The notes under the pieces are model-generated. The model made no database searches. It was not told the DNA's origin and worked only from the letters and a program-made list of their open reading frames with translations. From NCBI GenBank assembly GCA_033763455.1, contig JANRKO010000060.1, positions 64,001 to 128,000 on the forward strand: 64,000 nt of DNA. Reading direction: 5' to 3'. How positions within the stretch are numbered: the first letter of the stretch is position 1; every line of letters begins with the position of its first letter. This DNA is from Polyangiaceae bacterium. GTDB taxonomy: Bacteria; Myxococcota_A; Polyangia; Polyangiales; Polyangiaceae. Below are positions 7,519-30,737 of this stretch, piece by piece. Made by a program: the position numbers and the translations under genes.

Positions 7519-8382
7519 GTGACCCAGGGCGCCGACAACGACACGATCCTTCGTTCTATTACCGACGACGGAGCGTTCCGCGTATTAGCGGCACGGACCA
7601 CTAATACCGTGCGCGCTGTTACCAACGTGCAAAAAGCGACGGGGACAACCTTGCGATCCCTGGGCGATCTCGTGACTGGAACCATTCTCTTTCGGGAGAT
7701 GATGGCCCCTGATCTTCGTGTGCAGGGAATTCTGCGTGGCTCGGCCGGTCAAGGGACTATCGTTGCAGATTCTCATCCATCTGGAAATACCCGAGCCTTG
7801 GTTCAGCTGCCCAAAGAGCAGTCGCAGTTCGTGCTAGAAAATGGCACAATTTTGCAGCTCATGCGCAGCTTGCCCGGAGGGCGCATCAATCAAGGTTTGG
7901 TCGCTTTGCCCGAAGGCGGCACCGTGGCTGACGGCTTCATGGTGTACTTGGAAACATCCGAGCAGGTTACCAGCATGCTCGCGCTTGCCACTTTGATCGA
8001 AGGTGGTGAAGTGGTGGCCGCTGGCGGATATCTGGTTCAGCTGTTACCGGAGGTTGGGCGCGGCCCGCTCATGCTCATGACTGAACGGCTCGACGAATTC
8101 CGAACTATCGACCACTTACTCAGCGATCCAGGCTTTACGCCTGATCGCTTGCTCGCCGAGATATTGTATGGAATGCCAAACACCGAGGTTGGCAGGAGTG
8201 AAGTGCGGTTCGAATGCTGGTGCAGCCACGTGCGCCTCGTGTCGGCGCTTTCCACGCTGAGCCGCAAAGAGATTGAAGAGCTAACGGCTGACGGTAAAGT
8301 TCTGGAAATTACGTGCGACTATTGCAACCGCGAATACGGGGTTACTCCCGCACAGTTGCAGGGCTTGCTGCAACAGAGCTGA
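7519..8382 (+). CDS. hslO: Hsp33 redox-regulated chaperone
   Basis: AAGGYLVQLLP and a C-terminal zinc motif F-E-C-W-C-S ... EITCDYC. Confidence 0.93.
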   Translation: MTQGADNDTILRSITDDGAFRVLAARTTNTVRAVTNVQKATGTTLRSLGDLVTGTILFREMMAPDLRVQGILRGSAGQGTIVADSHPSGNTRALVQLPKEQSQFVLENGTILQLMRSLPGGRINQGLVALPEGGTVADGFMVYLETSEQVTSMLALATLIEGGEVVAAGGYLVQLLPEVGRGPLMLMTERLDEFRTIDHLLSDPGFTPDRLLAEILYGMPNTEVGRSEVRFECWCSHVRLVSALSTLSRKEIEELTADGKVLEITCDYCNREYGVTPAQLQGLLQQS

Positions 8383-8869
8383 GTAGCTCCGCTACAAAGC
8401 GTTCCGGTTCCTCGGGGGTAATCAGTAAGGTGCGTGCGCCACGTAAGCGCACCATTACGAACCGATCCGTACGCGAAATCCACATCGAGAATGTCTCCCG
8501 CCCGGTCTTCAATAGGCCAAAGCCGCCCCACAGGCCCCCGGCACCGATGCGCATACCATAGCCAAATTCCTTGCGAAATTCCGAGGCATCCATCAGCTTC
8601 ACGTCTTCAATGTCGGCCTTTTGGATCCTGCGCGTTCGCACCGGCCAAACAATGTTCAACGTGTGTCGCGTAATTTCAAAGCGCGTGGGGCGCCAGGCGA
8701 ACCACACCATCATGAACGACAGCAACATGAATGCTGTGGTGGCCAAAAGGAGCCAGCGTACGGGAATGGGGGCCGCATTCGCGGCCCATCCAAGCACCAC
8801 GGGGATGGCAAACAAGGCCCAAGTCGTGAGCTTGAGTAGAAGTGACATGGGAGCAAGCCGGTAAACCAT
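8342..8869 (-). CDS. Small membrane protein with bacterial PH-like domain
   Basis: Two N-terminal hydrophobic helices followed by GMRIGAGGLWGGFG and LLITPEEPERFV, typical of bacterial PH-domain membrane proteins. Overlaps the hslO 3' end convergently by 41 nt. Confidence 0.75.
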   Translation of the reverse strand: MVYRLAPMSLLLKLTTWALFAIPVVLGWAANAAPIPVRWLLLATTAFMLLSFMMVWFAWRPTRFEITRHTLNIVWPVRTRRIQKADIEDVKLMDASEFRKEFGYGMRIGAGGLWGGFGLLKTGRETFSMWISRTDRFVMVRLRGARTLLITPEEPERFVAELLSSVAASPATVRE

Positions 8870-9017
8870 GGTTTGATGGTGCAGGGTAGCGTGGGTCGAC
8901 GCCGGTGATGCTCAATCGCGTTGAGGTCTATGGCGGATATGATGCGCTGGTGTTCAAAACGGTGACCCCGCGGGCCCACGGCGGGTCTTGGGTTTCGTAT
9001 TGAGGATAGGGGTGGGC

Positions 9018-9046
9018 TGTGCCAGTTGTGCCATTGACGGTGTGCC
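9018..9046 (+). promoter_or_regulatory. Putative enhancer-binding-protein site (TGTGCCA-N2-TGTGCCAT plus a third TGTGCC)
   Basis: The tandem repeat starts 81 nt upstream of the sigma54 motif at 9099. The same motif occurs upstream of the paralog at 11105. Confidence 0.6.
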
Positions 9047-9098
9047 GGCTGACGGATGGATCAGCCGAAAGTCGAGGAATTAGGCTAGAAATTAAGTG

Positions 9099-9113
9099 TG
9101 GCACGTGTCTTGC
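9099..9113 (+). promoter_or_regulatory. Sigma54 -24/-12 promoter
   Basis: TGGCACG-TGTC-TTGC is an exact match to the TGGCACG-N4-TTGC consensus and ends 12 nt before the ATG at 9126. Confidence 0.8.
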
Positions 9114-9125
9114 GGAGGGGCGTTC

Positions 9126-10814
9126 ATGATTCGAACTCGGCTGGGCTCTTGGCACACTCTCTTCATGGCTGCGTTGGGGACGACCCCATTTGCGTGCGGG
9201 GGCTCTACCTCTACGGTGGAAATGTTCTCGGCTTCGGGCGGAGTTGGCGTGACGGGTGGCTCGGGAGGAGTTGGCGTGACGGGCGGCTCGGGGGGAGTTG
9301 GCGTGACGGGTGGCTCGGGAGGAACCGCTTCGGTGCCGGCGGCGTGGAGCTGTACTCCAGTGCCGTTAACTGGAGTAGACACCGGCTACGTGAGATGCGG
9401 CGAGGGGTATACGCACCGAACCCGCCAAGGTTCTTGCCCTTCGATTTACCCGCGTTCCGGATCGCAGTTGCCGCCTGACGCCACTGGTGGCGCGGGTGCG
9501 GCCGGCGGCGGTGGAGCCATGGGAACCGGTGGGAATGGCGCTGGGGGTTTGGCAACTGGAGGCTCGGGTGGATCTCGGTTTGCATGCTCTGAGGATGCTG
9601 ACTGCACGGCGAGTCCCATTGGGTATTGCCAGTATTCCCCGGCTCGTGAGGATGGCCCACTGGGGGGGGCGCCATCTAGCTCGACGTGTAACTACGGCTG
9701 TGCCACGGATGCTGACTGCGATGTGGGCTCCATTTGCGAGTGTGGCATTGACATGGGGCGCTGTGTTCCGTCCACGTGTCGTACGGACGCCGATTGTGCT
9801 GATGGTAGCTTGTGCGCGGGCGGAATAGAAAACGGGGGAGATCCAACTGGGTGCTCTTTTGAGACTCGGTACCAGCCGTTTTCTTGCCAGCTTCCTGGCG
9901 ACGAATGCTTCACCAACGCGCAGTGTCCTTGGGGTGAATCTTGCATACACGGGGAGGTCAACCGGACGTGTGTCCGCCTCCCGCTTTGCGGGCGCCCGTT
10001 TTGCGTCGACAGCGCGCACCGCCAAGCGAGCCCCACCGAGTCTGCAAGCTGGCTCAGCTCGCCCATATTCGTGAGCTCATTGGATGAATTGGATGCTGGA
10101 ACTCGGCGAGAAATTGCGGCACACTACACGGAAATAGCGCTCATGGAGCACGCATCGGTGGCAGCGTTCGCTCGCTTCTCGTTGCACCTGATGTCGATGG
10201 GAGCGCCCGCGTGGCTTCTCAGCGAAACCCAACGCGCGATGGGTGACGAGATTGAACACGCAAAGGCCTGTTTTGCCCTCGCGAGTAGCTACGCAGAAAG
10301 CAACGTTGGGCCTTCGCGATTGAGGCTTGAGGGTGCTTTTGAAGACGCCGGTGAGTTGGATATCATTGTTACGGCGGTCAAAGAGGCCTGTTTTGGCGAA
10401 ACTGTGGCTGCCATCGAAGCGGCAGAAGCTGCTAGCGTTGCGACTGTGCCGGCCGTACGGGAGCTGCTATCGCGCATCAGCGATGATGAGACTCGGCATG
10501 CAGAGCTTGGGTGGCGTTTTCTGGCGTGGGCCCTGGAGCATGTGGGCGCTTCCAGGCGTGCGGAGCTTACGGCTTCGTTACGGGTACTTTTGCACTCTGA
10601 GGTCGCAGAAGCTAACCAACAAGGGCGAGCCGAGAGTGGTGAGCATGCGCGTACAGCCATTTTGGGCGCGCACGGAATTCTCTCCGCAGCGTCGCGCGGC
10701 GAGCTGCGAAGGGCCGTACTCAAGGACGTTGTTGCGCCCGTCTTGAATTCACTGCTGGAAGCGTCGAGCGGCGCCGAACTAAAGTTGATGACGGAAATGG
10801 CGGCATTGGCGTAG
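9126..10814 (+). CDS. Putative lipoprotein: Gly/Cys-rich N-terminal region fused to a ferritin-like di-iron domain (copy 1)
   Basis: Start MIRTRLGSWH matches the paralog. Lipobox-like PFAC; CxxDxDC repeats; CGRPF junction; candidate di-iron ligands MEHAS, DEIEH, EACFGET, DETRH. Confidence 0.85.
   Translation: MIRTRLGSWHTLFMAALGTTPFACGGSTSTVEMFSASGGVGVTGGSGGVGVTGGSGGVGVTGGSGGTASVPAAWSCTPVPLTGVDTGYVRCGEGYTHRTRQGSCPSIYPRSGSQLPPDATGGAGAAGGGGAMGTGGNGAGGLATGGSGGSRFACSEDADCTASPIGYCQYSPAREDGPLGGAPSSSTCNYGCATDADCDVGSICECGIDMGRCVPSTCRTDADCADGSLCAGGIENGGDPTGCSFETRYQPFSCQLPGDECFTNAQCPWGESCIHGEVNRTCVRLPLCGRPFCVDSAHRQASPTESASWLSSPIFVSSLDELDAGTRREIAAHYTEIALMEHASVAAFARFSLHLMSMGAPAWLLSETQRAMGDEIEHAKACFALASSYAESNVGPSRLRLEGAFEDAGELDIIVTAVKEACFGETVAAIEAAEAASVATVPAVRELLSRISDDETRHAELGWRFLAWALEHVGASRRAELTASLRVLLHSEVAEANQQGRAESGEHARTAILGAHGILSAASRGELRRAVLKDVVAPVLNSLLEASSGAELKLMTEMAALA
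9234..9323 (+). repeat. 27-bp in-frame tandem repeat, 3 copies plus a partial (encodes SGGVGVTGG)
   Basis: Units TCGGGNGGAGTTGGCGTGACGGGYGGC start at 9234, 9261 and 9288, with a partial at 9315. Confidence 0.95.
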
Positions 10815-10917
10815 GGCGCTCGGGGCGAGGCTAGCGTGGGGTTCGGTGAGTCGGCGCAATTCGTGGTGCGAACGATCGTGCCCCCCAAATGGCCTGGGAC
10901 CGTTGCGAACCCCCACA

Positions 10918-10992
10918 AGCTCCGCCACAAGGCCCTCCAGCTCCTCGGGCGTGAGCAGAAGTGCGCGCCCTGCCATAGCCGAATTCTTGTCG
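10918..10992 (-). pseudogene. Relic of a second copy of the PH-domain membrane protein gene
   Basis: The minus strand encodes GRALLLTPEELEGLVAEL (compare ARTLLITPEEPERFVAEL at ~8385-8440) and, in another frame, RQEFGYG (compare RKEFGYG at ~8556-8575). The intervening part is deleted. Confidence 0.75.
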
Positions 10993-11104
10993 GGCTAGCG
11001 CGCCGTGCCGGTGTTGGTAGGCGTGCCCCAAGCTTCGCCCCAAAAAACCCTCATTCAGTGGCTAAAGCTGGGGCGTGGCATTGGGTATTCAGCGCGACAA
11101 ACGG

Positions 11105-11121
11105 TGTGCCATATGTGCCAT
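11105..11121 (+). promoter_or_regulatory. Putative enhancer-binding-protein site (TGTGCCA-TA-TGTGCCAT)
   Basis: Starts 89 nt upstream of the sigma54 motif at 11194 and matches the motif at 9018. Confidence 0.6.
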
Positions 11122-11193
11122 GTGCGGAGCACGAGTCAGACCGAGGTAGCGGATGAGCTCCAAAGACTCGGTAATATGCAGCAAGGCTAACGG

Positions 11194-11209
11194 CGGCACG
11201 GTGTTTGCT
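11194..11209 (+). promoter_or_regulatory. Sigma54 -24/-12 promoter
   Basis: CGGCACG-GTGT-TTGCT, with the same spacing to the ATG (11221) as in copy 1. Confidence 0.75.
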
Positions 11210-11220
11210 CGGCGGCGGCT

Positions 11221-12876
11221 ATGATTCGGACTCGACTTGGTTCTTGGCACGCACTCTTTCTGGCAGCGCTTGGGACAGCACCGTTCGGCTGCGGGGGCGC
11301 CACATCAGCGACGGACATGTCCTCGGCTTCGGGCGGAGGTGGTGCGTCAGGTGGCTCGGGCGGAAGCGATCCGGGGCGCGCGACGTGGAGCTGCACGAAT
11401 CCTATGCCGTTAACTGGAGTGGACACTGGCTATGTAAGGTGCGCTGAAGGGTACACACACCGAGCCAAGCAAGTGGCTTGCCCGTCGATTTACCCACGTT
11501 CTGGATCGCAACTGCCGGCTGACGCAACTTTTGGAGCGGGCCCGACCGGCGGCGGTGCGCTGGCCACAGGGGGCAACACGTCTGGGAGTTGGGCCGCTGG
11601 CGGTACGGGAGGAGTTCGGTTCGCTTGCGCCGAGGATGCCGATTGTAAGGAGAAGCCCAATGGGTATTGCCAGTACTATCCTGCGGTTCAGGCCCTAGGT
11701 GCCGCAGGATTGTGCGGTCCGCCGTCGTCGCCGTCTCGGACGGTGTGTAGCTACGGCTGTGTTACTGACCAGGACTGTGGATCGGGTACTATCTGCCAGT
11801 GCGGCGAGGGCATCGGAAGCTGCGTTCCGTCCACGTGTCGTACGGACGCCGATTGTGGTGAAGGTAGCTTGTGCGCGGGTGGGGTTTACGGTGAAAGTTC
11901 TATAGGGTTCTATTCCTGCCAGGTACCTGGCGATCAATGCTTTACCAACTCGCAGTGTGAGGGATACCCCTCCCGGGGAGGGTTTTGCGAGTGGATAGGG
12001 GTAAACGTCGATCGCATTCGTACCTGCGTGACGCGCCAAGTGACCCTCTGCGGACGCCCATTTTGCGTCGACAACGTGCACCGCCAGGCGAGCCCAACTG
12101 AGTCAGCGAGCTGGCTCGGATCTCCCATTTTCGTCGCCTCGGCAGACGAATTGGACGCCGTAAGTCGGCATGAGGTCGCCTCGCACTACACCGAAATAGC
12201 GCTCATGGAGCACGCATCGGTGGCGGCGTTTGCTCGCTTCTCGCTGCACTTGATGTCGATGGGAGCGCCTGCGTGGCTTCTCAGCGAAACCCAGCGCGCG
12301 ATGGGGGACGAGATAGAGCATGCAACGGCGTGCTTCGCGCTCGCCAGTAGCTATGCCGGCAGCAGCGTGGGTCCTTCGCAGCTTTGCCTGGAGGGTGCGT
12401 TTGCGGAAGTAAGTATGCTTGAGATCGTTGTTACCGCCGTGAAAGAGGCCTGTTTTGGCGAAACTGTGGCTGCCATTGAAGCGGCAGAAGCTGCCAGCGT
12501 TGCAACTGTGCCGGCTGTACGGGAGCTGTTATCGCGCATCAGCGACGATGAAACGCGGCATGCGGCGCTTGGGTGGCGTTTTCTGGCGTGGGCGTTGGAG
12601 AACGTGGGGGCTTCGACGCGTGCAGCGCTCGAGGCCTCTTTGCGGGAGCTTTTGCACGGTGAGTGTGCGGACGCCGATCGGCAGGCTCTCTCGGACACCG
12701 GCTTCAAGGCTCATGCCGCTGCCCTGAGCGCCCACGGAATTCTCTCCCCAGCGTCGCGGGCCGAGCTTAGAAGCACAGTGCTTCGGGATGTGGTCAGGCC
12801 GGTTCTGAATTCACTGCTTTCGGCAGCGAACAGTTCTGAAACGGCGTTGGTGCCGGAAGTGGCGGCGCTGTCGTAG
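11221..12876 (+). CDS. Putative lipoprotein: Gly/Cys-rich N-terminal region fused to a ferritin-like di-iron domain (copy 2)
   Basis: Paralog of 9126..10814: PFGC lipobox-like motif, CxxDxDC repeats, CGRPF, and a near-identical ferritin-like domain. Confidence 0.85.
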   Translation: MIRTRLGSWHALFLAALGTAPFGCGGATSATDMSSASGGGGASGGSGGSDPGRATWSCTNPMPLTGVDTGYVRCAEGYTHRAKQVACPSIYPRSGSQLPADATFGAGPTGGGALATGGNTSGSWAAGGTGGVRFACAEDADCKEKPNGYCQYYPAVQALGAAGLCGPPSSPSRTVCSYGCVTDQDCGSGTICQCGEGIGSCVPSTCRTDADCGEGSLCAGGVYGESSIGFYSCQVPGDQCFTNSQCEGYPSRGGFCEWIGVNVDRIRTCVTRQVTLCGRPFCVDNVHRQASPTESASWLGSPIFVASADELDAVSRHEVASHYTEIALMEHASVAAFARFSLHLMSMGAPAWLLSETQRAMGDEIEHATACFALASSYAGSSVGPSQLCLEGAFAEVSMLEIVVTAVKEACFGETVAAIEAAEAASVATVPAVRELLSRISDDETRHAALGWRFLAWALENVGASTRAALEASLRELLHGECADADRQALSDTGFKAHAAALSAHGILSPASRAELRSTVLRDVVRPVLNSLLSAANSSETALVPEVAALS

Positions 12877-12948
12877 GGTCTGATTCCTAGTACTGACAGA
12901 AGGCTAGCGTGAGACCTCGCGACGAGGCACAATTCACCAGGTACGCCA

Positions 12949-13239
12949 ATGAAGCTCTCCCGAGACCTCTCTGATCCGGATGCCCGTCCGTACTTTTTGT
13001 GGAGTGAACCGACCACCGTTGGGGAATTTCGGGACAAGCTAGCTCAAGCCGATGGAGAGGAGTGGGCGAGGTTGGTTGGCACTCTCATGCGCGAGGCGCG
13101 AGATCCAGACGTTTGGAAGTTCGTGACGCCGCAGATGGTGTGGGAGCGTTTTGAGAAGATTGATCGCTACTTGGGTAGGCGCCGTCCCTTTTGGCATTAC
13201 CTGATGAGCGCATGGCACGATGATGGATTCGTTGCCTAG
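12949..13239 (+). CDS. Small hypothetical protein, putative antitoxin partner of the downstream AbiEii-like gene
   Basis: 96 aa with an RPYFLWSE motif. Overlaps the start of the nucleotidyltransferase gene by 20 nt. Confidence 0.65.
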   Translation: MKLSRDLSDPDARPYFLWSEPTTVGEFRDKLAQADGEEWARLVGTLMREARDPDVWKFVTPQMVWERFEKIDRYLGRRRPFWHYLMSAWHDDGFVA

Positions 13240-13867
13240 CGGGCTCAGTCCGCTGCAGATGTTGGTCATCGCCCAGTTGCAGGCGAGAGCGACCAATTTC
13301 TTCCTTACCGGCGGTGGAGTCCTCGTGGGCTGGGTGCTACACCATCGAGAAACTGAAGATTTGGATCTCTTCACGGATAGCGACGAAACAATGGCTGAGG
13401 CGGACCGGCTCGCTCGGGGTGTTTCGGCCGCTATTGGTGCCGACATTGAAAGTCTTGTCGCCGCACCAGACTTCAAACGCTTCCTCCTCACTCGGGGCAA
13501 CGAAGCCGTTAAGCTGGATTTTGTGCGCGATCGAGCTCCGCAGCTGCGCGCGAAGGTTGCCGTCAGCGGGCTACTCATGGATCCTGTGGAAGAGATCCTC
13601 ATCAACAAGTTGTGTGCATTGGCGGGCCGAGCGGAAGTTCGTGACCTGGTCGATTTGCAATGTCTGGCGGATGCCGGTTACGATATTCTCAAGTTTCTTC
13701 CCGAGGCCGAATTGAAGGATGCTGGTGCAACGCCGGCGACTCTCGCCTGGTTGCTCTCGACGCTCAGGATCCCGGACGAAGTTCCCGGTCCACATTCGAG
13801 TGATGAATTGCGGAGGTTTGCCAAAGGCCTAGAAGCCAAGCTGAGGGCCCTCGCCGCACCTCGTTGA
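13220..13867 (+). CDS. AbiEii/AbiGii-family nucleotidyltransferase (type IV TA toxin-like)
   Basis: FFLTGGGVL...HHRETEDLDLF (GG...DxD) and KLCALAGRAEVRDLVDL (KxxAxxxR...RDxxD). Confidence 0.85.
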   Translation: MMDSLPSGLSPLQMLVIAQLQARATNFFLTGGGVLVGWVLHHRETEDLDLFTDSDETMAEADRLARGVSAAIGADIESLVAAPDFKRFLLTRGNEAVKLDFVRDRAPQLRAKVAVSGLLMDPVEEILINKLCALAGRAEVRDLVDLQCLADAGYDILKFLPEAELKDAGATPATLAWLLSTLRIPDEVPGPHSSDELRRFAKGLEAKLRALAAPR

Positions 13868-20434: not shown

Positions 20435-21514
20435 ATGAGAGAAGGAAAGAACCTCGTCGGTGTCGATATAGGCTCGACGGGCATCAAAGTGTGCCAGCTG
20501 GAGGATACCCGCCGGGGTGTCCGGCTTGTTCGATTTGGGTATGCCCCCTTGGCGCCCCAAGTGGTGGTGGATGGTCAGGTGATGGACGCCGGCGCCGTAA
20601 CGGCAACGCTGGAACAAGTCTTTTCGCAGTACAAGATCCGGGAGCGTTCCTGTGCCCTCAGTGTATCGGGCCAGAGCGTGATCATTCGCAAGATCACCGT
20701 TCCGATGATGACCGATGCGGAACTGGCCGAGCAGATCACGTGGGAGGCTGAGCAACATATCCCCTTTGACATCAAAGATGTCGAGGTGGACTACCAGGTG
20801 CTTAGAAGGCGCCCGGAGGCGAGCCAGATGGATCTGTTGCTGGTTGCCGCGAAGCGCGATCAGATTAACGACTATGCTCAGCTGGCACGCAATGCCAAGT
20901 TGAAGCCGGTGATCTGCGATATCGACGCCTTTACGGTGCAGAATCTCTTCGAGCGTGCACGTGGTTTGCCGGCAGGTCAGATTATCGCGATCATCAACGT
21001 TGGAGCGAGCCTTTCGTCGCTCAACGTGGTTGCCAATGGGGTGAGCGCCTTTACACGCGAAATCGCTAATGGCGGCAACCTGATCACCGAAGAGATCCAA
21101 AAGGCACTGGGGATGCCCCAAGAGCAGGCCGAGGCTCTGAAATGCGCCAGTACGCTCCAGATATCTCCAGATTCGAGCCGCTCGGGCGCCCAGCCGCACA
21201 ACCTGATGCGCATCATCGAGGCGGCAACGGACGCAATTGCCGCCGAGATCCAGCGTAGCCTCGACTTCTACCTCGCCACCAGCGGCGAGACAGAGATTGC
21301 GCGTATGTACTTAACAGGCGGCAGCGCCAATCTCCCGAGCCTGGCCCAGGCCATTGAGCGGCGGGCTCGCGTTCCGGTGGAAGTGTGGTCGCCTCTTGAA
21401 GGCCTCACGGTGGATCCGAAACATGTGGATACCACGTTGCTAGAGGCGCGTTCGGCACAATTGGCGGTCGCTCTCGGCCTTGCGCTGCGTAAGCAAAAAG
21501 AGGTGCGGGCGTGA
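20435..21514 (+). CDS. pilM: Type IV pilus assembly protein PilM
   Basis: VGVDIGSTGIKV (actin-like), EAEQHIPFD, EIQRSLDFY, YLTGGSA, AVALGLALR. Confidence 0.96.
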   Translation: MREGKNLVGVDIGSTGIKVCQLEDTRRGVRLVRFGYAPLAPQVVVDGQVMDAGAVTATLEQVFSQYKIRERSCALSVSGQSVIIRKITVPMMTDAELAEQITWEAEQHIPFDIKDVEVDYQVLRRRPEASQMDLLLVAAKRDQINDYAQLARNAKLKPVICDIDAFTVQNLFERARGLPAGQIIAIINVGASLSSLNVVANGVSAFTREIANGGNLITEEIQKALGMPQEQAEALKCASTLQISPDSSRSGAQPHNLMRIIEAATDAIAAEIQRSLDFYLATSGETEIARMYLTGGSANLPSLAQAIERRARVPVEVWSPLEGLTVDPKHVDTTLLEARSAQLAVALGLALRKQKEVRA

Positions 21515-22158
21515 TCAAGATCAACCTTCTGCCCGATAAGACGCGCACCAAAGGCAAAAAAACGAGCGAAGCGAGCCAGGTTTGGCTCGTGGTTATCCTG
21601 GTAGTGTGTCTTGCCGAGGTAGCGGGTCTATTTGTCTTCCATGGGTTCAAGGAGAGCGAGCTCGCCGAACAGACCCAGAAGAACGCTATCATTCAGAAGC
21701 AGATCGACCAGGCCAAGACCGCCGTGGCTGACCACGCCAAGGTCAAAGAAAAGCTCGCACAACTGCGCGCGCGTGAGGATGCGATAGCCGAGCTCCAGAG
21801 CGCCCGCACGGGCCCCACCGCCATGTTATTGGAACTTGCTCGCATTTTAACCCCTGGGCGAGGGCCGAGCGTTAATCCGGATCAGCTCAACAAGCTCCGA
21901 AGGGACAATCCTCTCGCTATCTACAACCCAGCTTGGGATGCCCGGCGGCTTTGGATATCTGACCTCAAAGAGGAATCTCGCAAGTTGAGCCTGCGCGGGA
22001 TTGCTCGAGACGGTGAGGATGTAAGTGAGCTCGCGCGGCGGTTGAATCTCTCGAGCTACTTCACAGATGTTAAGTTGCTCCCAGCCAAGCAGGTAACGGT
22101 GGTTAAAAGCGGGCCACAGTTGATCGAGTTCAACCTTGAAGCGATGGCGAGGTACTAA
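21511..22158 (+). CDS. pilN: Type IV pilus assembly protein PilN
   Basis: N-terminal MIKINLLP, then TM and coiled coil. Follows pilM with a 4-nt overlap. Confidence 0.94.
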   Translation: MIKINLLPDKTRTKGKKTSEASQVWLVVILVVCLAEVAGLFVFHGFKESELAEQTQKNAIIQKQIDQAKTAVADHAKVKEKLAQLRAREDAIAELQSARTGPTAMLLELARILTPGRGPSVNPDQLNKLRRDNPLAIYNPAWDARRLWISDLKEESRKLSLRGIARDGEDVSELARRLNLSSYFTDVKLLPAKQVTVVKSGPQLIEFNLEAMARY

Positions 22159-22772
22159 TGGCCGACTCCGCCCTTTCTAAATTGGCCCTCCCCGCTAAAA
22201 TTGGCATTGGCGTTGGCATGGGGGCCCTCTTGGCGTTCGCCTACTTTGTCGTTTTCTACGGAGATGTAGCCAGCAAGATCGAGGCTGCCACAAGCTCTGA
22301 GGAGCGCCTGAAGGTCGAACTGCAACAATGGAATAAGTCCAAATCCGACTACAACAAGGACCTAGCAGAGCTTACCGATCGCGAGCAACGTCAAACAGAA
22401 CTCAACAAGATCCTCCCGGCCACAACCGAGTATCCCGCGTTTCTGAGTTCTGTGCAGAGCGTCGCCAATACCACCGGTGTTGTGTTGAATGCGTGGACGC
22501 CCGAGGACGAGGTGAAAAAAGAGTTTTACGCTCGTATCCCGATGAAGCTGGAACTTCAGGGGCGCTACCATCAGATTGCGCGATTCTTCTACGGCGTGGG
22601 CCAGCTCGATCGCATCATCAACATGGAGAACATCGCGCTCACTCAACCCCAGGCAAAGGGTGATGAAGTGACCGTGAGCGTCAAGGTGCTGGCAACGGCG
22701 TTTCGCGCGCTCAGCGGAGAGCCGGATGCGAAAGCGGACAAGCGCGGCAACGCTTTAGGGGGTAAGCCGTGA
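22158..22772 (+). CDS. pilO: Type IV pilus assembly protein PilO
   Basis: TM, coiled coil, FYARIPM...GRYHQIARFFYGVGQLDRIIN; operon position. Confidence 0.94.
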   Translation: MADSALSKLALPAKIGIGVGMGALLAFAYFVVFYGDVASKIEAATSSEERLKVELQQWNKSKSDYNKDLAELTDREQRQTELNKILPATTEYPAFLSSVQSVANTTGVVLNAWTPEDEVKKEFYARIPMKLELQGRYHQIARFFYGVGQLDRIINMENIALTQPQAKGDEVTVSVKVLATAFRALSGEPDAKADKRGNALGGKP

Positions 22773-23350
22773 AGCGAGTATTCGGAGCACTGCTCTTGGG
22801 AGGTGCCTGCACACTGGTCTCAGCTTGTGAAGAACCCGTTGTGACAAGCAGTAGCACGACTGCGACGCGTGCGCCGAGTGCTGCGGCTGCCAGCAGCGCC
22901 CCCGTGGAGCAGGGGCCGCCTCGGGTAGAGTTTCAGGAATCCGAGTTTGCGGAGACTGACCGCAGCCGGGACCCATTTCGTAGTTATGAAGATCTCATCG
23001 TTGCCGAGGTCCGGGGTAACCTGCGCTCGCAGCGCAACGTTGTTTTGGATGAGTTCTCGATTGACGAACTCCGCCTGATTGGCATTGTCACCGGGATCGA
23101 ACCGGCCAAGGCCATGCTGGTAGATCCGAAGGGCAAAGGGCACGTGGTTGAGCGGGGTCAGTTTATTGGTCGCTCAGAGCTCGTGCAGGGGACGGGGGTG
23201 GGTGCGCCGAACTTCGAAATCAATTGGCGCATCGACCGCATTCGCGAAGGTGACATCGTTTTGGTCCGCGAAGACCCAAACAATCCCGACGTGCCAAGCG
23301 CCACACGTGTAATTGCCCTCCGACCTGAAGGTGACGCCACCCTCCAGTAA
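22769..23350 (+). CDS. pilP: Type IV pilus lipoprotein PilP
   Basis: Lipobox VSAC, RDPF motif, ELRLIGIV, AMLVDPKGKG. Confidence 0.92.
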   Translation: MKRVFGALLLGGACTLVSACEEPVVTSSSTTATRAPSAAAASSAPVEQGPPRVEFQESEFAETDRSRDPFRSYEDLIVAEVRGNLRSQRNVVLDEFSIDELRLIGIVTGIEPAKAMLVDPKGKGHVVERGQFIGRSELVQGTGVGAPNFEINWRIDRIREGDIVLVREDPNNPDVPSATRVIALRPEGDATLQ

Positions 23351-23556
23351 GGCTTGGGCCGGAAGGCCTGCCACGGGCCGGGAGCCCGCCGTGGCCAAGA
23401 AAGGCTGGTTGGTGTGTTTACATCGAGTCCAAAGCCCTGCCACAATCGAAGAAACGTGCCCGTAAGGAATCTCTTAGACTCGGTTTGCCAGGGCTCTGCT
23501 GCCACAGGTAGCGGTCCTTTTTGCGATCAACCCCGTAATGCTCGTGGAGCGCAGCC

Positions 23557-25854
23557 ATGAAGTGGAGAAAAAACTATTTTCCCACCGTGTTAGCCATTTC
23601 CGCGGCGTTCTCGTTGAGCGTAGTCGCGAGCGGGGCGAGTGCCGAGGGCGCTGTTAAGCGTCACGCCACGGAAGTCACTGTCCAGGAGGATGAAGCCCTG
23701 GGCGTTACAGAAGTGAGAGTTCGCTTCGACGCGCCGCCCACGTATTCTGCGCGTGTCGATCGCGGTGGGCTTCGAGTGGTTCTGGACGTGCCTGGCGCAG
23801 CGGTTCTGGGCGCCAAACCGGCCATCGTCGATCGCACCGGGCTTGTGTCTGGTGTTCTCACGCAGTCCTTCGGGGCCGGTGAGTCGGCTACCGCTCGAGT
23901 GCTAGTGACGTTAGCGCAGCCAGCGTCGCGGTTGGTGCGTGTCGAAGGTAACGATCTGGTGATGTGGTTGGCCGTTTCGCCCGAAAAGCTCGAGGTAAAG
24001 CGCGCTCCACGTGCGCCTCTTGCCCAAGCCCCTGAGGCCACCCGCGTCTTGGGTGTGAAGTTTAGCCACTTAGCCGATCAAGATCAGGTGCGCATTCAGC
24101 TATCAGGGGTGCCAAGTTATAGCTTAGAAAATGGCCAGGCTGGGCGTTCACGTTTGGTCCTGCACAACACCAGCTTGCCCGCTGAACTCCAGCAAACGCT
24201 TGATGCCTCTGCCTTCGGTGGCCAGCTAAAGGCTGTTTCCACGTATGAAGCGGCGGCTCCAGAAAAGGGCGTTACTCTGGAAGCGGAGCGTCAGGTTTCG
24301 GCTACCAGTCAGGTACGTCTTGTCGGGTCCGCGCTGGTGTGGTCGTTCTTTCGCCCAGGAGATGTGAGCTCCGCCGTTACCGGAATCGCTGCCGATGGTA
24401 AAGAAGCGCGCCGTATTCGAACGTTGCACGTGGATGCGCCGGCTTCGGATTTGATGCAGATACACTCCACCTTTAGCGGCATTGAAGGTGAATCTAGCTC
24501 ACCCGAGCAGGCCGGAAGCCTTACACCTACCGTTTTGGGGCAGGCCGATGGTGGCGCGGGGCGTCGCATCGACTTGGATTTGAAGGATGCCGATATTCAT
24601 AACGTCTTGCGGTTGCTCGCAGACGTTGGTCGCGTGAACATTGTTACGGCGGATAACGTTACCGGTTCGGTAACAATCCGGATGCGCAACGTACCGTGGA
24701 AGCAAGCGCTCGATGTCGTGCTCCAGGCGAAAGCCCTGGGCATGGTGGAGCGTGGCAACATGGTGCGAGTAGCTCCGCTCGCGGATCTTGAAAAGGAGCG
24801 CGAGATGGAGGTGGCGCGGCGTTCGCAGGAAGTGCGGCTTGCTCCACTCGAAACCCGCCTTATTCCAGTGAGTTACGCCACAGCTGATGACGTGCAGCAA
24901 AGAGTTTCGCCCCTCCTATCAGAGCGGGGAAGCGTTGCGGTAGATGGCCGAACGAACATCCTCATTGTTCGGGATCTTTCGGGCAATCTAGATCAAATTG
25001 AGCAACTTACGCGCGAGCTCGACACTCAGACACCTCAGGTGTTGGTGGAAGCGCGCATCGTGGAGGCAACCAGCCGCTACATCAAAGATGTGGGCATTCA
25101 GTGGGGTGGAGATCTCACCTTTTCTCCGGCCACAGCAAACCCAACCGGTTTGGTATTTCCCAACTCCGTTGGAATCGCAGGCGGTGCAAGCGACGGCAAT
25201 ACGCCTACAGCGGGCCTGAGCCCCTTCCAGTCTTCAGTTACCAACCCCAACTTTGCCGTTAACCTTCCGGCGGCCGTTGGTACCGGGAGCGGTGGCGCGC
25301 TCGGTCTTACCTTTGGGTCCATCGACAACACTATCAATCTTGGCTTGCGGCTTTCGGCGGCGGAGTCGAGCGGCATGCTGCGGATCCTTTCAAGCCCGCG
25401 AATATTGACTCTCGACAACAACGAGGCTCGCATTTCTCAAGGCACACTGATTCCCTTCTCGCAGGTGAGCGCCCAGGGCGTCCAAACCACCTTTCAAGAA
25501 GCGAAGCTCCAGCTGCTGGTGACCCCACACGTCACCGCTGATGGCAGCGTCAGTATGAAGGTGAAGATCAATCGCGACGAGCCAGACTTCAACCAAACCT
25601 CAGCTCGCGGTGATCCGACGGTGCTCAAGCGAGAGGCGGAGACTGAGCTGTTGGTTCCCGACGGTCACACCGCAGTGATTGGCGGTATCTACACGCGCAA
25701 TTCTGGTCGGAGCGCCGACCAGGTACCTTTCTTTGGAGACATCCCGCTGGTCGGCCTGTTGTTTCAACGCCGCCGCGCGAGCGACCAAAGGCAAGAACTG
25801 GTCATCTTCTTGACTCCACGGATTGTGAACCGCGCCCAAGCGCTCGGTCGGTAG
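23557..25854 (+). CDS. pilQ: Type IV pilus secretin PilQ
   Basis: Signal peptide, AMIN-like N-terminal region, RIDLDLKDADIHNVLRLL, QVLVEARIVEA, VPFFGDIPLVGLLF, ELVIFLTPRI. Confidence 0.96.
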   Translation: MKWRKNYFPTVLAISAAFSLSVVASGASAEGAVKRHATEVTVQEDEALGVTEVRVRFDAPPTYSARVDRGGLRVVLDVPGAAVLGAKPAIVDRTGLVSGVLTQSFGAGESATARVLVTLAQPASRLVRVEGNDLVMWLAVSPEKLEVKRAPRAPLAQAPEATRVLGVKFSHLADQDQVRIQLSGVPSYSLENGQAGRSRLVLHNTSLPAELQQTLDASAFGGQLKAVSTYEAAAPEKGVTLEAERQVSATSQVRLVGSALVWSFFRPGDVSSAVTGIAADGKEARRIRTLHVDAPASDLMQIHSTFSGIEGESSSPEQAGSLTPTVLGQADGGAGRRIDLDLKDADIHNVLRLLADVGRVNIVTADNVTGSVTIRMRNVPWKQALDVVLQAKALGMVERGNMVRVAPLADLEKEREMEVARRSQEVRLAPLETRLIPVSYATADDVQQRVSPLLSERGSVAVDGRTNILIVRDLSGNLDQIEQLTRELDTQTPQVLVEARIVEATSRYIKDVGIQWGGDLTFSPATANPTGLVFPNSVGIAGGASDGNTPTAGLSPFQSSVTNPNFAVNLPAAVGTGSGGALGLTFGSIDNTINLGLRLSAAESSGMLRILSSPRILTLDNNEARISQGTLIPFSQVSAQGVQTTFQEAKLQLLVTPHVTADGSVSMKVKINRDEPDFNQTSARGDPTVLKREAETELLVPDGHTAVIGGIYTRNSGRSADQVPFFGDIPLVGLLFQRRRASDQRQELVIFLTPRIVNRAQALGR

Positions 25855-26516: not shown

Positions 26517-29500
26517 ATGTCAACTTTGTTGACGGTAGCGGGCCGGACGCTCCGGGTCCTCGAGCACGTAGGGCAGGGCGCCACCAGCATTGTGTTTCGC
26601 GCGGCCGATGTTGCCACGGGTGCAGCGCTGGTGCTGAAGGTCGCTCGGAACGCGCGAGATACTGGAGCGTTCCTCAACGAAGCTGAGCGTCACGCCCGTG
26701 TCCGCTGTCCTGAACTCGTGCCGCTCGTGGGAGTGGGGCGGATTGAAGGAGTGTCTGCCGAAGGGCCGACGACCGTGTCGGTACTGCCTGGGGGGCCAGC
26801 GCTGTTGTTTCCCTGGATCGAAGGTGAAGACCTCACGCTCAGCTTCCGACCTGAGTCGAAGTATTCGTCCGTGTTAGGTCCCGAAGGGGCCCTCTTGGTG
26901 GCGTGGGAGCTTGGGCGGGCGCTCGACGAGTTGCACGAGATGGGGCAATCGCACGGGGATCTCAAGCCGAGCAATGTGATGTTAACCGGGAACGCCTTCG
27001 TACCGGATACGCTCTCTGTGCAGCTCATCGACCTTGGCCTAGGTGTTGATGCGACGGAACGTGTGCCGCGCGGTGGAACTCCGCGATACCTGGATCCAGA
27101 TCTGCTGAGTGGTAGACACTCGGGTGAGGCGCGCGCGCGCGATCTTTTTGCATTGGGGCTGTTGTTGGCGGAGATATCGGAACCAGCGCTTGCTGCTAGC
27201 CAGGATCTGCAGCAATCCCTGCGCCTAACTTCGCTAGACTCTCGGGTGCAGACGCTGGTGGGCCCCCTCGTCCGCAGCAGTCCAAGCGCGCGGCCGTCGG
27301 CTCGCTGGGTGTGGCAGCGCGCGGGGCAGATGTTGGGGCGGGCACAATCGGTTGAGTCGATTCGCGCTTGGCGCCGCCGTCGGGCTCGCGCCGCGTATTT
27401 GAAGGCTCGCGCGAGTGATCTCTCGGTGGTCTGGGGCACCCGCCCGGAGCTTCAAGTCTCAACTTTGGAAACGGAATGGCTGGCTGATTTCCTGAGCATC
27501 AGTGCACAGGTTGGCTCGTTTTCAGAAACCCCTAGAGGCGCGCAACTGAAGCTCCATGAGTTGAACGGTACTGGGCTAACGGCATTTTTGGTGCACTTGA
27601 TCGGACCTGTCGCAAGCGATTGGCCGGTTGGGCTCTTAGGGCCGGTACCGGCGGCACTAGAACGGGTGAGAGCTTTGCTGGATGAGTACGAGCCCGCTCA
27701 GCTCACGTTCGCGATGCTCCAGCCGAACCGCGTTCTGTCTAGCGTGACGCCGCCTGCTTCCTTTCCTACGGCAGAGGGGCTGGGCAAGGCTGAGGAGCGG
27801 TTGGTGTCCATGACGCTGGAGCTATCTGATCCCGGTAAAGCGTGGGCAGCGCTCACCTTGGCTGAACTTACGATCGCGGCAGGCCAGGCCCCACCGGCGC
27901 TCGTGGCGCTCACCGCGACGAGGTTGCGCCAAGTAGGTCAGTTGGGTCGAGCGTTGGTTCTCACCGAGGAGTCGAGGGTCATACGCGATCAGGTGTTTGC
28001 TGCGGAAACCTACCGCCGAGCGCGAGATCCGAAAAAAGCGGAGGCAATAGCTGATAGGATTCGAGGTTCAGGGGTGGCCCTCTCTGTCGATGAATTAGCC
28101 CAGTTGAGCGCCACGAGCGCGCGTATTTTGCTGGATCGCGGGGAGCTTGAAGCGGCATTTTTGTTGATAGATTCGGCCCCGCCGCTGTCGGTGGTGTGGG
28201 AAACCCGAGCGCAAATTGAGGTGGCGCGTGGGCACGTCTCGGAGGCTCTCGCCTGTGCCGAACGGGCTAAAGCATCTGCGCGCAGCGATGAAGAGCTCGC
28301 ACGTGCTGAGGCGGTGCTCGGGTTTGCCGCTCACCAGGCTGGCAACTCAGATCTTGAACTTCTGGCGTATCAACGAGCGTCCGAGTACGCAGCTCGTGCT
28401 GGCGCTGTGATCGAAGAGGCGCACTACTTGACGGGTGTGGCTGCCGCGAGCGTTCAGGTGGGTGCGTACGAGCACGCACAGAAGAGTGCCAGGCGTGCGC
28501 GCTTGTTGTTTGATTGGAGTGAACGGGGAGCGCAAGCTGCACGAGCCGCTCAGGCTGAGGCGGCGGTGTTCGCAGCGCTTGGGGCACGTGAAGAGGCGGA
28601 AGATTGCGCACGCGAAGCTGAACAGCGTGCCAAGCTCGCGGGGGATGTGCTGTGTCGCGCCTACGTGCACTTGACTCTAAGTGATGTACACGCTTCGGGC
28701 CGGCGTGGTCGCGAGCACGCTGAGCGTGCCCAGCAGCTTTTCGGTGAAAAATCGAGTCCGGCTGATAGCGTGCGAGTTGCAGCACGTTTACTACGCCACG
28801 GGGCCCCCGTGGCTATCAGCAGTGTAGATTCGCTGGCGTTGAATTGTGGAGCTGTAGATGCTTTGTTTGAATGGTGGGGTGCCCGCGCACAGGATTGCGC
28901 GAAGCGGCGTGACGTGCCGGTGGGAGCCTTGGTTGTTACCGAGCTGCTTGGCTTGTCGGCCAAGCGCGCACCGGCAGCTGTGCGCGGACCGTCGCTTGTC
29001 GCGGGCGCGCATCTCGCTTCTGAACTCGGAGATGGGGATGCCGCACGGCGACTGTTTGCCGGAGCGAACGAGGCGGCGCGGCAAGTGCTTGCGGCTGCGC
29101 CTGAATCCCTTCGAGCACGCATAGAGGCGCTTGACTGGATCCAACGGTGCCAAACCGTTGGCGAGCGGGCGCTTTTGCCTGAGCAACTTTCGGATGTGGA
29201 GGGCCTTATCCGGGCGCTCGGAGGTCGCGAGAACCGGCGCCTCTTGTTCGAGCGAATTCTAGACATGTTAGTGTTGTGGACAGGCGTAGAGCGGGCGCTC
29301 TTGCTCTTACCAGCGCCCAACGGAAAGCTCATGGTTCGCGCGGCGCGAAACCTGGCCCGCCACGATTTGGAGGGGGCACAGCTCGAATTGAGCCGTTCTT
29401 TGGCGCAGAGGGCGCTCGACGAAGGGGCACCGGTGGTGGCGGTGGATGCTCAGTTCGATTTGCCAGAAGTGCATGCGAGCGTTCACGCGCTCAAGTTGAG

Positions 29501-30737
29501 AAGCGTATTGGCTGTGCCACTCGTTGCACACGGTCAGAAGTTGGGTGTTGTGTACCTAGACGATCGGATTAAGCGGGGTGCGTTTGGTCCTCAAGAGTTA
29601 GGCTGGGTGCGGGTTATTGCAAGCCTCGCGGCGATAGCGCTGGGCGATATGCGCGCGGAGCTCTTGTTGCGGCGTTCACTCCGGCGCGCGTCACGTGCTG
29701 AAGCGCGTGTGCGTTCTGAGTTAGGTCGGCGTGAAGCGGAGTTGGAGGTCGCTCAACGTGAGTTGGCACAGGCACACAACGGACGTAACACGCGCTATGC
29801 GTATGACGCGATAGTGGGGGAAAGCGAACCCATCGTGCGGCTTCTCAGTTTGATTGACCGAGTTGCAGGTTCGGACATTCCTGTGCTTGTGTTGGGTGAA
29901 TCCGGAACCGGTAAGGAACTGGTAGCGCGCGCCCTTCATTCGAATAGCCCGAGAGCGAGCGGCCCCTACGTGTCCGAGAACTGCTCGGCCATCCCGGAAA
30001 CTTTGCTGGAATCAGCCCTATTTGGCCATGTTCGGGGTGCTTTTACGGGCGCCAGCCACACACGCGCGGGCCTATTCGATGCGGCGGATGGAGGCACGCT
30101 CTTTCTTGATGAAGTTGCCGAAATGAGCCTTGGGATGCAGACCAAGTTGCTGCGAGTGTTGGAAGATGGCCTGGTAAAACCGGTGGGTTCCGAGCGAACA
30201 CGTAAGGTGAACGTGCGAGTGCTTGCGGCCACCCATCGCGATCTCGAAGCTCGCGTTGAATCCGGAGCCTTTCGAAAGGATCTTTACTATCGCTTGAATG
30301 TGGTGACGCTAAAGGTCCCCGCGTTGCGGGAGCGTCCGGGCGATGTTGCGCTACTGATTAAGCATTTTATCGCGCAGTATTCTCCTGAAAAGCATCGCCG
30401 CCTATCGCGCGGCGCCGAAGGAGCTCTGCTCGCTTACCCGTGGCCCGGCAATGTGCGCCAGCTACAGAATGAGATCCGCCGTGCGCTGCTCATGGCCGAT
30501 GATACTATCGAGCTCTCGCACCTCAGCCCACAGATTATCGGCACCGCGCCAAGCGACGTCGCCGGTGCTGATTCCGTAAACTTGAAGGTACGCGTGGACG
30601 CGATGGAGCGACAACTCGTGACGTTGGCGCTCGAACGCACGGGCGGAAACCAGACGCGGGCCGCGGAGATGCTCGGCGTATCGCGCTTTGGCCTCCAAAA
30701 AATGCTGAAAAGGCTCGAAATTGAAGCCAAAAATTGA
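26517..30737 (+). CDS. Sigma54-dependent enhancer-binding protein with N-terminal Ser/Thr kinase, TPR-like region, GAF, AAA+ and Fis-type HTH
   Basis: [33 protein letters not shown]-like SVLAVPL...GVVYLD; GESGTGKE, GAFTGA, LFLDEV, RKDLYYRL, WPGNVRQL; GGNQTRAAEMLGVSR. Confidence 0.93.
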   Translation: MSTLLTVAGRTLRVLEHVGQGATSIVFRAADVATGAALVLKVARNARDTGAFLNEAERHARVRCPELVPLVGVGRIEGVSAEGPTTVSVLPGGPALLFPWIEGEDLTLSFRPESKYSSVLGPEGALLVAWELGRALDELHEMGQSHGDLKPSNVMLTGNAFVPDTLSVQLIDLGLGVDATERVPRGGTPRYLDPDLLSGRHSGEARARDLFALGLLLAEISEPALAASQDLQQSLRLTSLDSRVQTLVGPLVRSSPSARPSARWVWQRAGQMLGRAQSVESIRAWRRRRARAAYLKARASDLSVVWGTRPELQVSTLETEWLADFLSISAQVGSFSETPRGAQLKLHELNGTGLTAFLVHLIGPVASDWPVGLLGPVPAALERVRALLDEYEPAQLTFAMLQPNRVLSSVTPPASFPTAEGLGKAEERLVSMTLELSDPGKAWAALTLAELTIAAGQAPPALVALTATRLRQVGQLGRALVLTEESRVIRDQVFAAETYRRARDPKKAEAIADRIRGSGVALSVDELAQLSATSARILLDRGELEAAFLLIDSAPPLSVVWETRAQIEVARGHVSEALACAERAKASARSDEELARAEAVLGFAAHQAGNSDLELLAYQRASEYAARAGAVIEEAHYLTGVAAASVQVGAYEHAQKSARRARLLFDWSERGAQAARAAQAEAAVFAALGAREEAEDCAREAEQRAKLAGDVLCRAYVHLTLSDVHASGRRGREHAERAQQLFGEKSSPADSVRVAARLLRHGAPVAISSVDSLALNCGAVDALFEWWGARAQDCAKRRDVPVGALVVTELLGLSAKRAPAAVRGPSLVAGAHLASELGDGDAARRLFAGANEAARQVLAAAPESLRARIEALDWIQRCQTVGERALLPEQLSDVEGLIRALGGRENRRLLFERILDMLVLWTGVERALLLLPAPNGKLMVRAARNLARHDLEGAQLELSRSLAQRALDEGAPVVAVDAQFDLPEVHASVHALKLRSVLAVPLVAHGQKLGVVYLDDRIKRGAFGPQELGWVRVIASLAAIALGDMRAELLLRRSLRRASRAEARVRSELGRREAELEVAQRELAQAHNGRNTRYAYDAIVGESEPIVRLLSLIDRVAGSDIPVLVLGESGTGKELVARALHSNSPRASGPYVSENCSAIPETLLESALFGHVRGAFTGASHTRAGLFDAADGGTLFLDEVAEMSLGMQTKLLRVLEDGLVKPVGSERTRKVNVRVLAATHRDLEARVESGAFRKDLYYRLNVVTLKVPALRERPGDVALLIKHFIAQYSPEKHRRLSRGAEGALLAYPWPGNVRQLQNEIRRALLMADDTIELSHLSPQIIGTAPSDVAGADSVNLKVRVDAMERQLVTLALERTGGNQTRAAEMLGVSRFGLQKMLKRLEIEAKN

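Follow-up and report, generated by a model that had tools for sequence, protein, structure and literature searches.

Two tandem genes in a 64,000-nucleotide stretch of DNA from a Polyangiaceae bacterium (GenBank assembly GCA_033763455.1, contig JANRKO010000060.1, positions 64,001 to 128,000 of the forward strand) encode proteins in which a lipoprotein-type signal, a Gly-rich tether and a Cys-rich module are fused to a ferritin-like domain. The whole stretch is hereafter called the window, and positions are counted from its first nucleotide. Judging from the sequences retrieved, the two proteins belong to a large, unnamed family that is centred on Polyangia and often has several copies per genome. 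Because a lipoprotein-type signal and a disulfide-type Cys module precede the ferritin-like domain, this domain almost certainly has an extracytoplasmic location. The explanation that we favour is a lipid-anchored, exported di-metal oxidase that would use O2 or H2O2 and take its electrons from the substrate or from Fe(II). We regard this explanation as a whole as having about an even chance of being correct; our confidence is much higher for the architecture and lower for the chemistry, and the oxidase activity and its substrate are speculative.

Two open reading frames (ORFs) on the forward strand, at 9096/9126..10814 (gene A) and 11221..12876 (gene B), encode the proteins P0001 (562 aa, 9126..10814) and P0002 (551 aa), which matched the family profile in hmmsearch with E = 2.8e-170 and E = 2.1e-168, respectively. 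The likely start of gene A is the ATG at 9126, from which the N-terminus MIRTRLGSWH matches those of gene B and of homologs. In gene A, a putative signal peptide with lipobox Cys24 (9126-9197) is followed by the Gly-rich tether (9198-9344), the Cys-rich module (residues 74-288, 9345-9989), the GRPF junction with the ferritin-like domain (residues 289-562, 9990-10811) and the stop codon (10812-10814). Gene B has the same order, with the signal peptide and lipobox Cys24 at 11221-11292, the tether at 11293-11385, the Cys-rich module at 11386-12051 (residues 56-277, including a second Gly-rich insert at 101-132), the GRPF junction and ferritin-like domain at 12052-12873 (residues 278-551) and the stop codon at 12874-12876. 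A family-profile search of all six-frame ORFs of the window found no copies beyond these two. Residues are numbered below according to P0002 unless stated otherwise; in the C-terminal half, P0001 numbers are higher by 11.

Both proteins share the MIRTRLGSWH...FxCGG start, Cys24 at the lipobox position and the Gly-rich stretch that follows. Each has 23 Cys residues before GRPF (one lipobox Cys and 22 others), four C-x2-[DN]-x-[DQ]-C motifs, the same CGRPFCVD sequence, and the motifs EH, DEIEH, GET and DETRH. The two tandem paralogs and every motif listed for them in the first-pass annotation, which had been made from the sequence alone, were thus located. The paralogs were 66% identical by BLASTP (382/581, 49 gap positions, E = 0), with an identity of 63% (163/259, plus 45 gap columns) in the N-terminal half (residues 1-276) and 78% (214/275, zero gaps) in the C-terminal half (residues 277-551). 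Identity reached 87% (130/149) in the helical core (313-461) and fell to 59% (53/90) in the C-terminal tail (462-551). The difference between the halves is therefore real, but milder than the "nearly identical" C-terminal domain first described.

A word-index search for the family returned 604 proteins at E ≤ 1e-3 among 8000 scored candidates, with 35-43% identity and 70-99% query coverage; the named matches were annotated as "ferritin-like domain-containing protein" or "hypothetical protein" and came from Sorangium or Polyangiaceae. In reference genomes, at least 577 of 604 pattern matches were confirmed. In an exhaustive search with the C-terminal 271 residues, the matching cluster representatives numbered 8981 at E ≤ 1e-3, 4951 at E ≤ 1e-10 and 1314 at E ≤ 1e-30. 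For each of these large searches, details were read from the best 120-150 matches. The 79 loci retained were assigned to Sorangium, Polyangiaceae, Polyangiales, Polyangia, Myxococcales, Myxococcota and "delta proteobacterium" metagenome-assembled genomes, with two from "uncultured bacterium", and at least nine of the assemblies among them hold two to four copies each. No longer fused forms were found among the 8000 candidates, which is weak evidence, and the short "stand-alone" matches were mostly gene fragments beginning within the Cys module. A literature search on the family, its accession numbers and exported ferritin-like proteins found no relevant paper.

Residue conservation was assessed in a 150-sequence alignment. 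Thirteen positions were invariant in all 150 members: G278, R279, P280, E330, H331, D363, E364, H367, E409, C411, E414, E444 and H447. The GRP of the junction, which had been suggested as a point to check, is thus invariant, whereas the Cys residues flanking GRPF vary (C277 in 70/150, C282 in 3/150). In the N-terminal half, about 20 Cys residues were at least 90% conserved. Mean pairwise identity was 57% in the four-helix core, 43% in the junction, 39-41% in the Cys modules (31-34% without the Cys columns), 28% in the tail and 23-25% in the linkers. By this alignment, the N-terminal half is a conserved scaffold with variable loops and linkers, and the tail is equally variable. In one relative, P0159, the ligand motifs have degenerated (QH.. 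replaces EH, and DK..D replaces DE..H), and this protein is possibly an inactive copy.

The protein was modelled with AlphaFold2 on the 150-row alignment (mean pLDDT 84, pTM 0.67), and disorder was confined to the tether and linkers (23-52, 107-129 and 159-165). In its C-terminal half, the model has six long helices (313-346, 351-379, 399-427, 431-461, 464-491 and 510-550), preceded by a beta-hairpin after GRPF (281-288) that is continuous with the ferritin-like domain. The putative ligands lie on the first four helices, which form the pairs 313-346/351-379 and 399-427/431-461; the E-to-ExxH spacing is 34 residues in the first pair and 30 (or 35) in the second. In gene B the putative ligands are E330, E364/H367, E409 or E414, and E444/H447, and in gene A they are E341, E375/H378, E420 or E425, and E455/H458. 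Between the two helix-3 glutamates, in the motif E-x-C-x-G-E-T, lies C411 (12451-12453; C422 in P0001), one of the invariant residues, which in a presumably oxidising compartment could serve as a ligand, take part in redox chemistry or form a crosslink.

The best fold matches of this model were all di-iron or related di-metal enzymes. The top match in a Foldseek search was ADO (5ux2_B, E = 0.088, probability 0.99, TM by target 0.62), and PaaA (4iit_A, probability 0.99, TM by target 0.51) and R2lox (3ee4 and 7qbk, probability 0.97-0.99, TM by target 0.48-0.57) were also among the best, with NrdF (6tqz) near the top and PaaC also listed. These top matches had E values of 0.09-0.2 and sequence identities of 11-18%. 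In an Atlas structure search, ADO clusters scored TM 0.59-0.60, and one cluster of kin was labelled "putative lipoprotein". Sequence-profile matches in the PDB were weak (DesA2, rubrerythrin, EncC and Bfr), the best natural di-iron match being DesA2 with E = 0.056. Weak Pfam likenesses were to Rubrerythrin, Phenol_Hydrox, FA_desaturase_2, DUF455 and AurF, with scores below the cut-offs for Rubrerythrin (13.8 vs 22.8), Phenol_Hydrox (11.4 vs 24.4) and DUF455 (13.7-15.4 vs 34.3), as was the score for the NCBIfam model EncB_fam (12 vs 90). Since the ligand motifs are invariant in 150/150 members, the model is a helical bundle and the best fold matches are di-iron enzymes, the assignment of the C-terminal half as a ferritin-like di-metal carboxylate domain, with putative metal binding, is supported. 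This agrees with the ferritin-like di-iron domain proposed in the first-pass annotation, and the four-helix bundle on which that proposal depended appears in the model as a long helical bundle with the motifs on its first four helices. The DExxH/DExRH doublet is known as the signature of the long di-metal carboxylate enzymes, not of the storage ferritins.

Two relatives show how the junction is related to the domain. P0201 (351 aa) and P0202 (280 aa) have a lipoprotein signal and a Gly-rich tether that lead directly into GRP and the ferritin-like domain, without a Cys module. The retention of GRP in these proteins suggests that the GRP(F) hairpin is part of the ferritin-like domain and that the Cys module is an optional insert.

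The ferritin-like domain is probably dimeric. A homodimer of residues 290-551 passed a controlled prediction test, with an ipSAE of 0.77 against 0.00 for the best of three controls. Among solved proteins, 20 of 30 one-chain pairs and 1 of 23 single chains reached this mark; these counts apply only roughly here, as our own alignment was used. Contact agreement among runs was at least 94%, and the pLDDT of the partner was at least 84. The predicted interface is formed by helices 1-2 (331-369) and residues 385-393, and contains the strongly conserved EHASVAAFARF stretch. As 30 of its 34 residues are identical between the paralogs, heterodimers of P0001 and P0002 are conceivable. In pairing through the first two core helices, the predicted dimer may resemble those of R2 and R2lox, and the result may reflect likeness to solved R2-type dimers rather than real binding.

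The N-termini of both proteins have Arg residues at positions 3 and 5, a hydrophobic segment of ~12 residues, Cys24 and then the Gly-rich tether, which was modelled by AlphaFold2 as disorder in P0002 (pLDDT < 50 at residues 23-52). A relaxed lipobox-like Cys after a short hydrophobic segment was present in 100 of the 142 Met-started members of alignment A2. The number of Cys residues before GRP in 156 signal-bearing members peaked at 23 (63 members) and 25 (44 members); once one Cys is set aside as the lipid acceptor, both leave an even number, which is what disulfide pairing would be expected to give. In Myxococcus xanthus, a Lys at position +2 sorts lipoproteins to the inner membrane and an Ala at position +7 to the matrix (PMC3222651). 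Both window proteins have Gly at +2, with Thr (A) or Ala (B) at +7, which is too weak and taxonomically too distant a basis for assigning them to a compartment.

The Cys-rich module itself appears to be a folded domain. In the AlphaFold2 model described above it consists of beta-hairpin units, and when folded alone, the N-domain reached a pLDDT of 81 and a pTM of 0.76. In both window proteins, the Cys-rich region is split by the second Gly-rich insert (P0002 residues 101-132, 11521-11616, and the matching P0001 stretch); this segment is 32 residues long here, compared with a family median of 5. A Foldseek search of the N-domain against the PDB found no meaningful neighbour (best E = 0.48, probability ≤ 0.12), and the fold matches at this level were to generic extracellular disulfide-rich modules (TNFR, EGF, Dkk and R-spondin), with the Dkk4 N-terminal structure at rank 8 (probability 0.12). 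The Dickkopf N-terminal Cys-rich region (PF04706) scored 15 and 17.1 bits, below its gathering cut-off of 25. The model TIGR04201 (Myxo_Cys_RPT) scored 16.8 and 18.5 bits on the window proteins, also below its cut-off of 25, and 13 of 35 family members matched it at E ≤ 0.01 (best 2e-6).

TIGR04201 describes a myxobacterial Cys-rich repeat that occurs in the stalk of the cell-surface receptor TraA (PMC3325183). The two have in common short units with conserved Cys and Asp in exported, presumably disulfide-bonded myxobacterial proteins. Unlike TraA, the family studied here has no PA14 domain or MYXO-CTERM tag, would be anchored by an N-terminal lipid and has a ferritin-like bundle as partner.

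The divergence between genes A and B, estimated by the Nei-Gojobori method, points to an old tandem duplication (synonymous divergence, dS, about 0.9) under purifying selection. In the N-terminal half, dS was 0.93 and the ratio of nonsynonymous to synonymous divergence (dN/dS) was 0.28; the corresponding values were 0.74 and 0.12 in the ferritin-like region (277-480), and 1.5 and 0.22 in the tail. Gene conversion as the cause of the conserved C-terminal half was mostly rejected, given a dS of 0.74 in the core and 0.93 in the N-terminal half, and the conservation appears to reflect mainly constraint rather than recent gene conversion. By the same estimates, the N-terminal half of the pair is without overall diversifying selection. 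The second independent tandem pair, at locus L005 (5919-7472 and 7683-9332), has identical signal peptides, an N-terminal half with 76% identity and 42 gap columns, and a C-terminal half with 92.5% identity and no gaps. Its dS values form a mosaic, with a higher value in the Cys module (0.56; dN/dS 0.43) flanked by lower ones in the signal and linker (0.15) and in the C domain (0.22); this pattern suggests either homogenisation of the flanks by gene conversion or exchange of the Cys module. The comparison of dN/dS per half that the first-pass annotation had called for thus gave values below 1 in both halves of the window pair, and its hypervariable N-terminal part did not hold up: about 20 Cys positions show 90% conservation or more, the model of the module is of high confidence, and dN/dS is 0.28 and 0.43 in the two pairs.

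The regulatory motifs upstream of the family genes are new in this analysis. Sigma-54-type -24/-12 elements are located at 9100..9113 (+) before gene A (GGCACGTGTCTTGC) and at 11195..11208 (+) before gene B (GGCACGGTGTTTGC), each ending 12 nt before the ATG. No other match to GGCAC-N5-TTGC exists in the 64-kb window. Farther upstream are the direct repeats TGTGCCA-NN-TGTGCCAT at 9018..9034 (+), 108 nt before the ATG of gene A, and TGTGCCA-TA-TGTGCCAT at 11105..11121 (+), 116 nt before the ATG of gene B, which are candidate activator sites; the window contains two matches to this repeat, one per paralog, against 0.13 expected. As criteria for a sigma-54 promoter we took TGGCAC-N5-TTGC, with its GG and GC spaced by 10 nt, and an activator site farther upstream; both window genes show a corresponding arrangement. 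TGTGCCA is also the reverse complement of the -24-like TGGCACA.

Across the family, a relaxed -24/-12 element ending 11-14 nt before the ATG was found in 15 of 63 genes, against 0.025 expected from a background of 212 matches in 2.16 million positions; all family starts examined were ATG by construction, as only ATG starts were kept. Besides the window pair, the element occurs in loci L014, L016, L021, L026, L032, L037, L044, L047, L052, L061, L062, L068 and L078, with fewer independent cases because some loci are close kin (L014/L016, L068/L078 and the window pair). The TGTGCC repeat was matched 19 times in 1.08 Mb (loci and window), and 13 of these matches fall in the 250 nt before a family gene, where 0.28 would be expected. 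The half-sites are arranged as direct repeats (N2-5 spacer) or as palindromes (GGCACA-N0-6-TGTGCC), 35-139 nt upstream of the starts, and besides the window pair they occur upstream in L011, L014, L016, L021, L038, L042, L044, L047, L052, L059 and L074. With an element ending 11-14 nt before the ATG, transcription would begin at the start codon or beside it and yield a leaderless mRNA or one with a 1-nt leader. We therefore infer sigma-54-dependent, (near-)leaderless mRNAs, with an activator acting on the TGTGCC half-sites. Scans for sigma-70 promoters and terminators gave background levels only, no Rfam RNA family was found in 8300-13300, and no paper was found that combines sigma-54, leaderless and Myxococcus. 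The sole sigma-54 activator seen in the window is a protein of 1406 aa encoded at 26517-30734 (+), with a Ser/Thr kinase, a GAF domain, a sigma-54 activator AAA+ domain and a Fis-type helix-turn-helix.

Taken together in one proposed mechanism, a sigma-54 promoter would set the mRNA start at or next to the AUG, with an activator bound to TGTGCC repeats about 85-140 nt upstream. The product would be a Sec/signal-peptidase-II lipoprotein, exported and tethered through lipidated Cys24 and a flexible Gly-rich linker. A rigid module with about 11 disulfides, built from four C-x2-D-x-D-C units, would come next, and a short GRPF hairpin would connect it to the dimeric ferritin-like domain. This domain, of the long enzyme-type class, would bind two metals (Fe/Fe or Mn/Fe) through E330, E364/H367, E409 or E414, and E444/H447, and would act as an extracytoplasmic, membrane-anchored di-metal oxidase that reacts with O2 (or H2O2). 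Electrons would come from the substrate or from Fe(II), as an exported domain is out of reach of cytoplasmic reductases. The Cys-rich module would serve as a stiff spacer or a recognition arm, with loop variation distinguishing the many paralogs. The surface-displayed oxidase with a variable binding arm that the first-pass annotation had offered as one option comes close to this explanation.

The nearest enzymes for comparison are R2lox, ADO, the R2 subunit of ribonucleotide reductase (RNR), PaaA and acyl-ACP desaturase, in which the paired helices of a long bundle likewise carry the pattern E...(D)ExxH...E...(D)ExRH. Proteins of the R2lox/ADO class are cytoplasmic and stand-alone, whereas the family described here is fused to a lipoprotein-type signal and a disulfide-rich module, has the additional invariant residues H331, C411, E409 or E414, E420 and GRPF, and has no evident reductase partner. 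An extracytoplasmic parallel is the lipid-modified azurin of Neisseria, a lipid-tethered periplasmic redox protein with a low-complexity linker. Its lipobox Cys, flexible low-complexity tether and extracytoplasmic metal redox domain follow the same logic as the architecture proposed for the family, but it has type-1 copper and no Cys-rich module, and it is not known to be related in sequence or fold.

Several observations weigh against the proposed mechanism. The known relatives that activate O2 depend on a reductase, which would not be expected outside the cytoplasm; no reductase is encoded near the window genes, and no conserved neighbour was found across 60 family loci, which leaves no hint of a substrate. 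In the PDB, neither the Foldseek search (best E = 0.088) nor the sequence-profile search gave a match at E ≤ 1e-3, and no Pfam or NCBIfam model reached its curated cut-off on either window protein. The lipobox of the window pair, P-F-[GA]-C, departs at position -3 from the canonical L-[AST]-[GA]-C. H331, although invariant, may not be a ligand, since it falls within the interface of the predicted dimer. The sigma-54 element has this spacing to the ATG in only 15 of the 63 family genes, some of them close kin. A more specific version of the proposal is a reductase-free, lipid-anchored, R2lox/ADO-like O2-activating enzyme acting on hydrophobic envelope, vesicle or prey-derived substrates, with an arm that gives target specificity and with a dedicated sigma-54 activator and leaderless transcripts. 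We think this version unlikely as a whole.

The missing reductase would be explained if Fe(II) itself were the electron source, as in a protein for extracytoplasmic iron handling, whose ferroxidase or iron-binding centre would oxidise or sequester Fe(II), in the periplasm or at the cell surface, for uptake, detoxification or storage. The invariant E/ExxH ligand set also defines ferroxidase centres, and the weak sequence matches include bacterioferritin, EncC and rubrerythrin. However, cage-forming ferritins (ferritin, Bfr and Dps) have subunits of ~160-180 aa that assemble into 12- or 24-mers, whereas the domain here is ~270 aa long with six long helices, is predicted to form a dimer, and finds its best folds in ADO, PaaA, R2lox and R2. 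No iron transporter or Fur-type context was seen near the family genes, and many paralogs with different Cys-rich arms would be hard to explain for bulk iron. We consider this reading a minority possibility. Somewhat less probable still is a surface or matrix protein for recognition or structure, in which the ferritin-like domain would be a metal-stabilised scaffold without turnover and the arm would do the adhesion or recognition, like the TraA stalk. The weak match of the Cys-rich units to the TraA receptor repeat TIGR04201, the faster divergence of the N-terminal half than of the core in two independent tandem pairs, and the lack of some ligand residues in at least one relative (P0159) are in line with this. 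However, the ten acidic, His and Cys residues that surround the site are unchanged in all 150 aligned members, conservation is highest in the four-helix core (mean pairwise identity 57%, compared with 39-41% in the Cys modules), and the members without any Cys module imply that the ferritin-like domain, not the arm, is the constant functional unit.

The first-pass annotation had also raised a self-processing protein, in which a precursor is fused to its maturase and processed at or near CGRP. In such a protein, the di-iron domain would act in cis to modify the Cys-rich part, and cleavage at the junction would set free a disulfide-rich product. The invariant GRP (150/150) does mark the boundary between the halves, and the N-terminal half is the more variable one. 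Yet precursors of ribosomally synthesised and post-translationally modified peptides have a short hypervariable core beside a conserved recognition part, and a conserved protease/exporter context. The family shows neither such a core nor such a context: its N-terminal half is a conserved Cys scaffold, modelled as a folded domain of ~220 aa, dN/dS is below 1 in both tandem pairs, and conserved neighbours for proteolysis, export or immunity were not found. GRP stays with the ferritin-like domain in P0201 and P0202, where there is no Cys module to release, and the junction is modelled as a hairpin (281-288) continuous with that domain. An Arg-Pro bond is, moreover, a poor protease site. We thus regard self-processing as very improbable. 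A polymorphic, SitA-like lipoprotein toxin was rejected, as the constant part is C-terminal, the variable part is N-terminal and there is no conserved downstream immunity-like gene. The probability left over by the exported oxidase and these three rivals belongs to something else.

The genes around the pair are housekeeping or unrelated genes. The upstream flank contains glyA, a Ser/Thr kinase gene, hemL, yacG, hsp33 and a gene for a bacterial-PH membrane protein, and the downstream flank contains an AbiEii-type pair, typA, a Dam-type methyltransferase gene, cdsA, a sigma factor gene, pilMNOPQ, the kinase-GAF-sigma-54 activator gene and Opp transporter genes. Across the 60 family loci, with neighbouring genes called by longest-ORF picking, the best non-family cluster was Ser/Thr kinases (8/60), followed by ABC ATPases and sigma-54 activators (4/60 each, about chance by a rough estimate) and a DUF1592/DUF1552 pair (3/60). 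Directly downstream of gene B, a small ORF without a Pfam match (12949-13239, +) overlaps an AbiEii-type nucleotidyltransferase gene (13220-13867, +; PF08843, E = 1.7e-16); by sequence, the two look like a type IV toxin-antitoxin pair, unrelated to the lipoprotein genes. Farther along the window are the type IV pilus assembly cluster pilM-pilN-pilO-pilP-pilQ (20435-25851, +) and two Opp-type ABC transporter sets (31425-44973, -).

Di-metal carboxylate enzymes of the R2, ADO and desaturase types are textbook cytoplasmic proteins that depend on soluble reductases. In thousands of family members, such a domain follows a lipoprotein-type signal and a disulfide module. A second peculiarity, independent of the first, is the sigma-54 element directly before the start codon. 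As Sorangium strains with orthologs are culturable, the question of how this domain is used is experimentally tractable. Its answer would reveal either a new extracellular way of feeding electrons to di-metal sites, or a di-metal scaffold in non-canonical use.

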